Positions 10,401-19,400 of a stretch of DNA of 64,000 bases are shown one piece after another (position 1 is the stretch's first letter; each line of letters starts with the position of its first letter). Under the pieces are notes generated by a model, which worked only from the letters and a program-made list of their open reading frames with translations, ran no database searches and had not been told where the DNA came from. The stretch lies in NCBI RefSeq assembly GCF_006345805.1, contig NC_042999.1:72540001-72604000 (forward strand), read 5' to 3'. Position numbers and translations under genes: made by a program. This stretch comes from Octopus sinensis (lineage: Eukaryota).

Positions 10401-13400
10401 AGGGTAGAGTAGAGTTAAATAAATTGATTCCCAGTACTTGAGTAGTACTTTATTTTATTGACTCCTGAAGTTAAAAAACAGATAAAGTCAAACTCAATAA
10501 CATTTGAATTAGTGATGTAAATGGAAGTAACTATCACAAACCATTTCCTTTGGCACTCTACCAAACCAAGAATACATAAAGTTGTCAAATACAATTCTTA
10601 GCGGGAGGATTTTTTTCACTATATTCAATGTAATGACAATCTCATCGTTTTCTAAATAATTTTCTGACTTAACAACAAACCTACTAGTACCTAAAAAAGA
10701 ACTAACGTTTTTAAAGTTCATGTTTGTCTCAACTGTACAAGAAGCCTAAATGAAATGGAACGTCTTTACTCGGGAAGCCCAACAGATTCAGTTTGCCAGG
10801 AGCTTCTCATTCTATGGATATTGCATACAGTCTATTTCTACAGTCACAGAAGTATTCATATCAAAGCTGTCTCCCTAACTGGTTTGTATTGATTAGGATA
10901 ACTTTAACTAACATGACTGTTGCTCAAAATGTTACTATGTGGCACCCACATTTCTTATAATCTTTAAAGATGTTTTAAGCTCTTGATTTAGAGAAAACAA
11001 TGGCCAGTTAGGAATGCTACAATTCCTCACAAATCTCAGAACCAAAACATAACTGATTAGGGCTACACATCATAATCAAGATCTTATCCTGGGCCCTTCA
11101 ACATCCTTGAAGCTGTACAAGAACACTCAAGATTTTTTTTTATTTTGAGACCTAGCAGAATCCATCCATCTCCAAGTCTAAACAAACAGTGAATTTCTTC
11201 TAGAAAACAGAACAATTGATGGACAGAAAGTGATAAGAGAAGAACCAACCACAATACAGGACTAGTACTTTGTCAGCTCTAAAAGGATAAAGGACAAAGT
11301 TGACCCCAGAAAGATTTGAACTCAGAGCATAGAGAGCCAAAATGATTACTGCAAAGTAATCTCCTCAATGCACTAATGATTCTGACAATTGGTTGCATTG
11401 TCACTAACAATAATTAATAGTAGAGAGAGAGAAAAAAAAACAGTTAAAATAATAGAAAGGTATTTTACACAGCTCATCTTAGTTGCTGTAACTGATATTT
11501 CCCAGATCTTCCTACAGCAGAACCAAACTGACAAGAAACTGAAGCTTTAGTTCATTCAACTGCTGTCATATACTTTATCAGGGTCTTCATTAAATACTTT
11601 GTTATTAAGGTGAAACACCTAAATCTATTTTCTTTTAATGATGAAATATAATTTCTTGGCAAAATGTCTTGTGGGTAGTGTTCTCAAACTTAGATCTTGA
11701 ATAAATAATTACAATAGATCACAAGTTTATCTATTATTCCTTATCAAAACCCAATCATACACTTGACACCACTCAGTGGCCAATATGACCAACTGTACAT
11801 CAGATGCTGTCATCAAGTACATGACCATTACCTCCATAAAAAGAATTTCCAAGTTTTTCTGTAAATATTAAGAACACCAGAATATGAAGCGTATTAAGAT
11901 GATATAGATAGAAGATTAAAAGAAAGAAAAACAAAACAAAACAAAAACAGAACCAAAACAATAAAAGAAATGAAAGGAGGAAAAACTGTGTTAGTGTCAA
12001 TAATAAAATGAAAACAGAAAATTAAAAAAAAATAAAGACAGCAGTTGATGAGTACAACATGATATCCATTTTGATATAATATCACAAATACAAGAGCAAC
12101 AATCGAACTGTTGTAAGAACTGTGCAAGCAAAAAGCAATAAGAAGTGCAGCTGACATACCAGTGTCATTTAGAAGTATGGCCTCTGTGGCTACAAGGGCA
12201 GCAGGTAAGAAAGAGAAATCTCACAGTTAAACATCCAGACAATAAAGGACAGATTGTTGCGCATTGTGCCAATGCACATCAAACTCTCCAGGCATCACCA
12301 ATCATATTAGATCTAGCATTGTCCTGGGGACATGGGGGGCACACACACACATATACATACATATATATGTATATATACACATACATACATATGTATGTAT
12401 ACATAACTATACACATGTACACACATGTACATACATTTATACATGTGTACATATACACACAGATATTTACATGTGTATAATATATATATATATATATATA
12501 TATATATATACATATATACATATGTGTATGTGCGCGCATGTGTGTGTGTGTTTGTGTAGCCACTGGTGAATCCTAGTATTTCATATGTATATGATAGCAT
12601 TGCCATCAGAACTAATCAAAGATGTAGCACTGCACAGATATAGCTCTTAGCTTGCTCCTTGTAATATTTCGCAATCATGTCAATATACTCAGTATATATA
12701 TATATAACTCAGGACAATGCTAGAATTTGTTTTACAATAATAATAATAATAATTATTAATATAATAATAATAATAATGGCCAATCTCTGACAAGCTTTCT
12801 GCAAAGTAATATAAATGATTAGTATCATGTCAGATATAATGTTAACAGTCATCAAACGCTTACCTGAAGATATGTGTAGATGTGTTATGCTTTAGAATCA
12901 GACCTTCATTTTTAGTTTCATTACTGACATTTTCTACTGAATATTTTAATTAACTAAAATTAGCAAGCTAATGAAATTCTAATTTAGTGGTAACTTCTAC
13001 AGGTGTTTCTTACAGGAGTGGAATATATAATGTAGGCTAAAAGTCTGACAATGAATACATGCCTGCTACACTGGGAGACATGCAACATCCAAATAGGGAA
13101 GTCATATATGTTTGGTTTATTAAATATAATATTTCTACACCTTTACAAACAAGTTCAGTAGAGTTAAGATGTTGTGTGTAATTACTGTTATTAAAATACT
13201 AGAAATAAAGTAGAATGCATAAACTGAAAGCCAGAATTGAGAAACTGAAGAATCAAGAAGAGAAGATGATGAGGGAGGTCACATGAAAAAATGTAAAATG
13301 ATGAGTCTGCAAAGCAACTAGCTTTAAACAGATTTTGAAAGTATATGAAAATTCTCAGATAAATGAAATGTATAAATACTATTTTGTGTGAGATGTGTAG

Positions 13401-16400: not shown

Positions 16401-19400
16401 ATGAGAGTAGGTGTGTCATGGCATCATTGATAAATGCTTTCAGGTGCTTTGCCCATGGCAGCTGTGCTGATTGACAAATGAAAGGTAGGTCATTGACATA
16501 ATTGAGTGAGGTGCCAGAGTTTATAGAGTTTATTAGAGTGAATAGCTGTTGAGACAAACACAGTGCAGCCAGAGGTCAAGTTTTGGATCCAGGCAAATAG
16601 TTTAGAATTAAGACTATATGAAGGAAGTTTGATAAAGAAAAGAAATCCATCATGATAACAATTAAAACAGAAGTTTCCAAAGAGAGTTACTAAGATACCC
16701 AAAAACAAGTTCAATATCTCATATAACCAGAAAACTCCAGCAAATTAAAATTAATTGAAAGTAAGCGACCAATAACTCAAATTTGAAATGTTAATTTATA
16801 AAATTAGTAAAAATTTTTAATAAATTATGTATAAAAACAAAAAATACATACAAAATTAAATCAAATCAAATACAGAAAATTAAATTATTGGTGCAGTAAT
16901 GAGTGTTCAAACACAAAAGAAACAGAAAGATGTATTAGAAAGCATTATTCCTATAACTTCTAATTAGAAATGGAGATATATGCTGAATGATTTCATCAGA
17001 AAAGCAGAAAAAAAGGAAACAACTTAGACATGCAGTATTAACATGAATCAAAAATCTTGTATAAATTACTTTGTAAAGAAAGACTAAATTTCAAATTTTC
17101 TAATTGAAGTAAAACAAACATTTGAAAAGATTTAAGTAACTTTAATGCTTTGTTTTATACAAATGTTAGACAATCAAACACAAAATATCCAATTCTAATT
17201 TCCTACACTAGCTTGTACCAACATCTCCCCCCCCCCACACACACACACACTCTCTCAGCCTCTCTTGCTAGCGATTCTTCATTAGTCATTCTTCAACAAC
17301 TACACTGAAATCCATGCAAAGGACAGTTGTATAAATACTTACTGTAATAATTAAAATAATATTACTTATTGACCAGTATAATTTTTTTTTCTTCATCAAA
17401 TAATTATTTCTCAATAAATCTTTAATGCCCACTACATTAAATATGTTAACACTATCTTAAAACATTCAGTGACTATCATGAATTTAGATTACTTAGATTC
17501 TGTGAAGATATTCAAACACTTTTTTACTTTTTATTTTTCTTATGTTTGTTTTCTGCTGTTCCTATCTTTTTCCTTCTGAAAACCTATTACCAATTTAAAC
17601 AAGAGAACTGTACACACGCAAATTTCAACGACAATAAACCTATCAAATAAATGCCTACGTCCACAATATCCAATTTTCTATGATGGAAATTAAGAACAGA
17701 AGGGAATGAAAAAATTGAACAAAGAAAATTATCAATGCCAGGCCCACCTGACTGGCTCCTGTGCTGGTGGCATGTAAAAAGCACCCACTACATACTCAGA
17801 GTGGTTGGCACTAGGAAGGGCATCCAGCAGTAGGAACATTGCCAGATCAGAATGGAGCCTCGTGCAGCCACTGGCTCTCCAGACCTCAATCAAACCATCC
17901 AACCCATGCTAGCATGGAAAATGGACATATGATGATGATAAAAAAAATTGTATTTCTTTTCGTTTCTAGCTGGAGAAAAAAAAAAAAATCGACTTTTGAA
18001 AAAGATATCAATATTATTCTTTCAAAAGAAACCTCTCCAAATTTCACCTCAAAATTACTACAATACTCTATACACATTCTACCTCAAACAGGTATATATA
18101 ACGACCCGTCTCTTAACCTACACACAGCAACCTATCTCTATATACACTAACCTGCATCTTGGGTTCTAGCACTGTGCTGCAATCCCAGCAAAAGGTAATC
18201 CTGTCTTACTTAATTGTCCCACAATGAAGGGTACACTCACTATTGTATGCTGTACAAGGCACTATATATTTGACAAATGTTTCATGGAGCTTAACTCATC
18301 ACTAGGTATGACAGCAACGAAATGTCACATAGTAGTACCTGGTTAATATCTCTCTCAGTTTAAAAAAAAATCAAAAATAGGATTGTGTACGATGTATATT
18401 TCCTTTTGCACCTTACCTCCTCTGGTAGAATGCTCCACTGAGTAGTTGTGCATAAGTATTATACATTTTGATTTTTACTTTGAGAGGTAAAGTGAATGTT
18501 GTTATTCGAAATAAAATTAAGAACTAAATGTTTTCTTTTTGCAAAAGTCTACAGTGATTCCCCACCTCCACTCTTGATTCAATATCATTAAACTGGAAAT
18601 TGTTCATTAATTAAAAAAACTTACAGACAGAAATAGACCACAATGCTAAGGAAAAGAGAGGAATTTGATACTGAAACTTACATAGGAGCATGTTATAAAT
18701 GGGTAACCAAAATGCATGTTATACATGTATTTTGGTTACCCATTGTGACTCATTGCATTTCTCACAGCAAGAGTAAAAGGGAGTGCCAGTAACTTGACAC
18801 AGAACAAATATTGCAAAGGACTTCATTCAAAGAGCCCATTTTGGAAGTTTTTTTCACATCAGTGAAAGATACATCAATGTAATTCCACACAGTTTTTGTC
18901 TATGAAAGCTCATTCATTAAAAGTATTGGTTTTTTACCTAGTGTTACAGTAAAATATACTTGCTGCTCATAGAGCCACACCGTGGGATCAAACCCAGAGC
19001 CCAAGAGTTAGGAAGCAAGCTGTTGAACCAGACAATCGTCATAATTCCCCACTCACCCTTTTAATGGCTCATTCAGAAGAGGAAAGACAACACAACTAAC
19101 ACTTTTTCAATGATGAGAAAAAGATAAGAAGCCATGTTCCAACTTGGCCTGAATCCGAACAACAGAGTAATTCTCTGCTGAAGGCGGTGATGTTAAAGTA
19201 AGTGATGGTTTAAATATCAGAATTTAATTACATCAATACTCTGCATAATCTAACCTCTGAGAGATATAGCACCAGCATAATTCTTCTCCATAGATTTTTT
19301 TTTACAGTTTGTTTATCATTCATCACATTCAATGAGAACTTCTATCAATATCAAGTGAATCTAAATTATGTTTTGAATGCAGAGACTGCTGCAAGCTTGG

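Follow-up and report, generated by a model that had tools for sequence, protein, structure and literature searches.

Candidate microexons in the loop 4 intron of an octopus SERINC gene, including a skippable exon with eMIC-like acceptor features

The minus strand of the 64,000-nucleotide window of the Octopus sinensis genome analysed here (contig NC_042999.1) carries a SERINC (serine incorporator) gene, whose coding span runs from 57085 to 4328. The gene model comprises 13 exons separated by GT-AG introns throughout, and its spliced translation of 463 amino acids is identical to P0004, a record annotated as Octopus vulgaris serine incorporator 3-like (Table 1). Its membership in the SERINC/TMS1 family is indicated by the Pfam Serinc domain (PF03348), matched by the stretch 6328-6176, which is identical in sequence to a part of P0004, and by full-length homology to human SERINC3 (7RU6/7RUG) and fly TMS1d (6SP2), with E-values of 1e-122 to 1e-135, the same topology and a disordered intracellular loop 4 (ICL4). 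SERINCs are lipid transporters whose ICL4 is coupled to helix 8 and contains an acidic cluster proposed to bind AP2 (PMC10359404; here and below, publications are cited from excerpts of their text), and SERINC1 and SERINC3 have been described as cargo of AP-4 (PMC6160451). In the octopus gene the coding sequence of this loop is interrupted by one phase-1 intron of 15,047 nt (21377-6331), which contains all five short segments, m1 to m5, that the first-pass annotation had proposed as microexons. Every one of them would insert into ICL4, of which residues 336-392 are modelled by AlphaFold with a predicted local distance difference test (pLDDT) score below 50; the same stretch is absent from 7RUG, an ICL4-deletion structure of human SERINC3. 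The lengths of all five are multiples of three and they are open in phase 1, so that the frame is kept, and 30 of the 31 possible exon combinations are free of stop codons. No Rfam match was found across 4000-26000.

One of the five, m4, is shown at the level of annotated proteins to be a real, skippable exon. In P0004 it adds ten residues (358-367) with an acidic/di-hydrophobic motif, while in Argonauta isoform X3 (P0005) and in a close relative, P0006, the flanking exons are joined directly and in frame; these skipped forms come from relatives and not from the octopus of the window. The octopus loop differs from that of human SERINC3: a 15-kb intron bearing optional exons, known or candidate, divides its coding sequence, and m4 aligns to a stretch that is fixed in the human loop. 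An origin of m4 as a copy of the 3' end of the upstream exon was considered and dropped: 208 of 8670 open intronic 9-mers score equally.

The first-pass annotation had ascribed m2, m3 and m4 to neural control by eMIC-domain proteins. The eMIC is found across bilaterians and is restricted to neurons in non-vertebrates, and its code in fly and mammal comprises UGC near the 3' splice site, UCUC tracts and a strong branch point (PMC8797185). Targets of SRRM3/4 carry a bipartite UCU_CUC..UGC enhancer, with UGC between the branch point and the AG in 57 of 73 and 51 of 71 SRRM3/4-dependent microexons, UGC not being strictly required (10.1101/2024.09.17.613571). The three UGC-bearing acceptor strings reported earlier each occur once and in place on the minus (sense) strand, with UGC at -15 in m2, at -12 in m3 and at -14 and -11 in m4; m1 and m5, as had been claimed, have none within 40 nt of the AG. 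However, only one of these three acceptors belongs to an established exon, that of m4, while m2 and m3 are predictions. A displaced UCUC-rich tract together with a strong branch point is found in m4, where the elements follow one another as reported for SRRM3/4 targets (10.1101/2024.09.17.613571) and fly eMIC exons (PMC8797185), in part in m2 and not in m3; the proposed eMIC-type control is backed by a complete 3' architecture in m4 and is plausible for m2, but is weak for m3, whose splice scores resemble the background. In sequence, the octopus candidates resemble eMIC-dependent neural microexons (Srrm3/4, Srrm234) in being short (9-30 nt), frame-preserving and phase-symmetric, in having UGC between the pyrimidine tract and the AG (m2 and m4) and UCUC with an upstream branch point (m4), and in entering a disordered loop of a membrane/trafficking protein; they differ in the short AG-free zones of m3 and m4. 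The common cut-off for microexons is 27 nt, which m4 exceeds by 3 nt. Its 30 nt are near the median length of 31 nt of eMIC exons in fly (PMC8797185).

To judge the UGC pattern against chance, UGC starting at -15 to -6 was counted before intronic AGs of the SERINC gene. It precedes 361 of 2765 such AGs and 194 of 1432 YAGs; if YAGs with another AG nearby are set aside, the figure is 107 of 693, and for pyrimidine-rich YAGs it is 51 of 332, i.e. 13-15% under four definitions, at which rate at least three of five acceptors would carry it with a probability of 0.018-0.029. Among microexon-like decoy candidates the count is 12 of 65, and among constitutive acceptors 1 of 11, versus 3 of 5 candidates (Fisher p=0.063). 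The pattern exceeds chance modestly, and the test is partly circular because m2 and m3 are themselves predictions. The single constitutive acceptor with UGC, that of the 80-nt exon beginning at 36238 on the minus strand, carries it at -10 (36248-36246).

We regard it as an even call that the locus encodes one or more eMIC-type neural microexons remodelling the trafficking/regulatory loop of SERINC; for m4 taken by itself, we put eMIC-type neural control at slightly better than even. According to this model, the phase-1 intron interrupting ICL4 would hold an alternatively spliced microexon cassette, in which the branch point and the pyrimidine tract of m4 lie away from the AG, with UGCUGC in between; owing to a weak acceptor, m4 would by default be left out, and neurons, where an eMIC-bearing isoform of Srrm234 is made, would include it. 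Inclusion would lengthen the disordered cytosolic loop by an acidic/di-hydrophobic peptide and, by analogy with human SERINC3/5, would most likely change either how adaptors sort this lipid scramblase or how ICL4 is coupled to helix 8.

Several points weigh against such control. The UGC enrichment is marginal (p 0.02-0.06, post hoc), UGC being a trinucleotide that stands before 13-15% of decoy AGs. The m4 peptide is not a canonical di-leucine sorting signal, for which the pattern is [DE]xxxL[LI], because its acidic residue lies at -3 of the leucine pair. The AG-free zone extends over 10 nt in m3, 28 nt in m4, 38 nt in m2 and 125 nt in m5, compared with 31-69 nt in the 11 constitutive acceptors, so that among these candidates only m5 has a long one and m4 falls below every constitutive acceptor; eMIC exons have been described as having long AG-free zones (PMC8797185). 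Unlike the fly eMIC targets, which have short introns, m4 is flanked by introns of several kilobases, and a search of the eMIC/neural exon tables of PMC8797185 for TMS1, Serinc or a CG number gave no fly Serinc exon, in a source that describes the fly programmes as largely rewired. Finally, the same genes repeatedly carry muscle exons, which for the most part do not depend on the eMIC (PMC8797185; 10.64898/2026.09.05.749416). It is conceivable, if unlikely, that m4 is a real alternative exon that is muscle-enriched or broadly intermediate in its inclusion, and that its UGCs are incidental. This would agree with the background frequency of UGC and its presence at the constitutive acceptor 36238, with the inclusion of m4 in the reference protein P0004, with the fly orthologue missing from the eMIC tables, and with the annotation of long forms in bivalves, animals with presumably little central nervous tissue. 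Nevertheless, m4 has the whole ordered architecture beyond UGC alone, and UGC occurs in about 74-79% of SRRM3/4 targets versus ~15% of decoys, a roughly five-fold difference in windows that are not identical.

The other candidates were assessed by splice scores, which come from ad hoc matrices, a further weakness of the eMIC interpretation. The 15,047-nt intron holds 362 candidates that preserve the frame and do not exceed 30 nt; all were ranked, and decoy introns totalling 87.7 kb (51.4 kb antisense and, from other sense introns, 36.3 kb) served for comparison. Coordinates of m1 and m5 had not been given before; the two names were assigned here to the remaining candidates at the head of this ranking, the top four consisting of m2 (rank 1), m1 (2), m5 (3) and m4. 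Four candidates score at or above the level of m4, versus 1.03 expected from the decoys, and three unannotated ones reach at least 7.25, the level of m5, versus 0.69 expected and none in the 36 kb of other sense introns. This excess is suggestive only. The m2 acceptor has an A-rich gap between its UCUC tract and UGC and no branch-point consensus nearer than -83; we put the likelihood that it is a real exon at about one half, and its features are probably those of a second exon of the m4 kind. The weakest candidate is m3, for which we put it at about one third: it is devoid of a pyrimidine tract, 18 candidates in the intron score as well as it does (about 11 expected from decoys), and a second AG lies 12 nt upstream of its acceptor, the use of which would give a 21-nt exon and make the UGC exonic.

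A different explanation, which is tentative but has to be given some weight, is that m4 is the only exon at this locus, that m1, m2, m3 and m5 are pseudo-exons picked out by eye from a long intron, and that the UGC contrast is an artefact of selection. These four are absent from all proteins retrieved by our homologue searches, which also tells against the eMIC reading; m3 is decoy-like, and decoys yield 0.7-1.0 candidates of m1/m5/m4 grade per 15 kb. Set against this are the excess of high-scoring unannotated candidates, the presence in other molluscs of at least two classes of inserts at this junction, and the clustering of homologues at 90%, by which octopus isoforms are masked, P0004 being the representative of 8 sequences. 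The homologue searches retrieved three cephalopod-like clusters and no more (P0004-P0006), and a search of 50% representatives gave 26 weak matches, none of them close.

The proposal that m1 and m5 follow a program different from that of m2-m4 found no support. The absence of UGC says little, because 21-26% of known SRRM3/4 targets lack it and it is not strictly required in them, and the sole stop-bearing combination among the 31 is that of m1 joined to m5, so that a productive joint programme of the two would not be possible without m2-m4. A likeness of m1 to part of an Aplysia insert was dropped, as the similar stretch there probably spans a junction. Three further candidates were rejected: a 51-nt one (21004-20954), which has the highest score when lengths of up to 60 nt are admitted but no support, and those at 14903 and 19916, which lie inside repeats. 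The strongest donor of the intron (CAG/GTAAGC, 12866-12858, minus strand) has no frame-preserving open exon within 160 nt upstream; as an AG-GT site it might serve recursive splicing, or it might close an exon that shifts the frame. A near-perfect hairpin of ~21 bp (18744-18698, minus strand; z=-3.04 for 18780-18600) lies 50-100 nt upstream of the m1 acceptor, and could mask the m1 branch point or represent a transposon relic.

Adenosine-to-inosine (A-to-I) editing is abundant in coleoid neurons, and m2 might be controlled by RNA structure, a flank hairpin pairing its UGC with sequence behind the donor and hiding both splice sites until opening, for instance by editing, allows inclusion with or without the eMIC. 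The segment 18485-18358 (minus strand) is predicted to fold at -26.8 kcal/mol (z=-3.44), with m2 at the apex of a stem made of its flanks, and in a centred 130-nt window z is -2.64 and the UGC is predicted to be paired. Yet a fold of this strength or better occurs in 5 of 114 tiled intron windows, and of the five exons tested the other four have z of about +0.5. We consider such control very unlikely, the fold being a lead towards regulation by structure or editing.

Inserts at the same position of ICL4 were compared in 180 proteins, in 59 of which the upstream exon has an end of the mollusc type; the classes were assigned by eye. The loop is short in 30 of the 59 (14-17 residues, every one beginning with Gly, as the skip junction predicts) and longer in 29. 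Among the longer ones, 10 have a tyrosine-type insert, 17 (including P0004) an acidic/di-hydrophobic one, to which class m4 belongs, and 3 have neither, Aplysia being counted in both classes, as its isoform X3 has a 29-residue insert that contains the two. The m3 peptide fits the tyrosine-type class by its tyrosine and its order, which is weak support. Differences between species need not correspond to exons, but short and long forms at the junction are also found within species, in Crassostrea virginica (skip, +5 and +7), Batillaria (+5) and Mya (+11), and near-identical pairs from ticks, across species, differ by 9-10 residues (+9/+10). Oysters, snails, clams and ticks have optional short inserts at the octopus site. 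The oyster records P0060, P0063, P0064 and P0066 comprise the skipped form, +5 (tyrosine-type) and +7 (di-hydrophobic), with no +12 among those retrieved, hinting that the two inserts are mutually exclusive. A sea-star SERINC record (P0022 versus P0045) has an optional insert of 9 residues in the same loop, which precedes the mollusc site by some ten residues. A top regional match, P0124, labelled as an Acipenser contaminant, is a duplicated vertebrate-type SERINC1 and was set aside as irrelevant.

Differing short inserts at one protein position in molluscs and chelicerates recall the recurrent neural exon hot spots (type I convergence) described in a recent preprint (10.64898/2026.09.05.749416). 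SERINC is not named in the main text of the preprint, and the inserts at this site may be homologous or convergent. The broadest interpretation would make loop 4 a microexon hot spot that extends across protostomes and has gone unreported, expanded in octopus into a five-exon combinatorial cassette; with it, neurons would recast the sorting/regulatory loop of a lipid scramblase through the eMIC and perhaps through a hairpin sensitive to editing. We consider it quite unlikely; the loop is the one that retroviral antagonists target in humans. No paper on SERINC microexons was found in a literature search whose coverage excludes the 2019 eMIC paper and the supplements of the 2026 preprint on twenty species, octopus among them, either of which may already list the m4 exon. 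Another UGC-marked neural microexon would in itself be unsurprising, since the phenomenon is well established in bilaterians. The value of the observation lies in the host site: the cellular function of SERINCs is poorly defined, their regulatory loop is ICL4, and optional short exons appear to vary just this loop in animals ranging from oysters to ticks. If their splicing is neural, the natural isoforms would offer a direct test of the role of ICL4, in sorting or in scramblase gating, in neurons.

Distal Rbfox sites can work via RNA bridges, and the first-pass annotation had pointed to five UGCAUG hexamers of the Rbfox type. Their coordinates are right, but two further copies in the same intron were missed (15173-15168, which sits in an interspersed repeat, and 7312-7307). 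Co-regulation of the cluster by Rbfox through these hexamers is a remote prospect. In its favour, the intron has seven sense copies versus two antisense ones; the seven nevertheless compare with 6.2 expected from dinucleotides (p=0.42), and the window as a whole has 21 versus 26.8 expected, the SERINC gene being likewise below expectation. There is no UGCAUG within 890 nt of any candidate, the distance of the closest copies being 895 nt (upstream of m4) and 923 nt (downstream of m3) in an overall range of 895-4520 nt, and only one GCAUG occurs within 500 nt of any candidate. No bridging, docking or selector-type inverted repeat was found among the 25 longest of 306 pairs, these 25 being nearly all AT microsatellites. 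The distant UGCAUGs are without a demonstrated part in the mechanism.

Table 1. Coordinates, in window positions, of the SERINC exons, the candidate microexons and the motifs of the loop 4 intron
Feature	Position	Strand	Remarks
SERINC exons 1-5	57085-57053, 39812-39648, 38539-38346, 36238-36159, 35588-35451	-	P0004-identical model
SERINC exons 6-10	33883-33807, 31792-31696, 25943-25857, 22275-22152, 21451-21378	-	P0004-identical model
SERINC exons 11-13	12189-12160 (m4, optional), 6330-6177, 4466-4328	-	P0004-identical model
Upstream constitutive exon	21451-21378	-	End of helix 8 and start of ICL4; phase-1 donor
Downstream constitutive exon	6330-6177	-	Remainder of loop 4 and helix 9
m1 candidate, 21 nt	18645-18625	-	Strong pyrimidine tract right up to AG; donor weak; proximal UGC absent
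m2 candidate, 21 nt	18437-18417	-	UGC -15; AG-free 38 nt; UCUC -49; strong donor GAG/GTAAGG
m2 acceptor	18452-18438	-	UGC at 18452-18450
m3 candidate, 9 nt (or 21 nt from AG before 18261)	18249-18241	-	UGC -12; AG-free 10 nt
m3 acceptor	18261-18250	-	UGC at 18261-18259
m4 exon, 30 nt	12189-12160	-	In P0004; bounded by AG/GT
m4 acceptor region	12230-12190	-	Branch-point consensus -41; UCUC/pyrimidine tract near -27; UGCUGC -14/-11; AG-free 28 nt
m4 UGC-bearing acceptor	12203-12190	-	String of first-pass annotation located
m5 candidate, 27 nt	11858-11832	-	AG-free 125 nt; U-rich tract; no UGC in 100 nt
Seven sense UGCAUG	17318, 17034, 15173, 13084, 10243, 9485, 7312	-	Scattered over 17318-7307

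The same AT-rich intron includes a GC-rich tandem repeat of 22 nt in four to five copies (8213-8300). Mobile elements have also been identified in and next to the gene. A Penelope-like element (27455-29218) resides in SERINC intron 7; it contains a GIY-YIG-type open reading frame (27651-28433, minus strand; Pfam E 2.5e-4, just under the cut-off) and a 577-nt inverted duplication with 99.5% identity. Downstream of SERINC, a retroelement of the long interspersed nuclear element (LINE) type occupies 1-2200 on the minus strand and encodes an endonuclease/exonuclease/phosphatase domain, after which frames that look by eye like a reverse transcriptase run off the end of the window.

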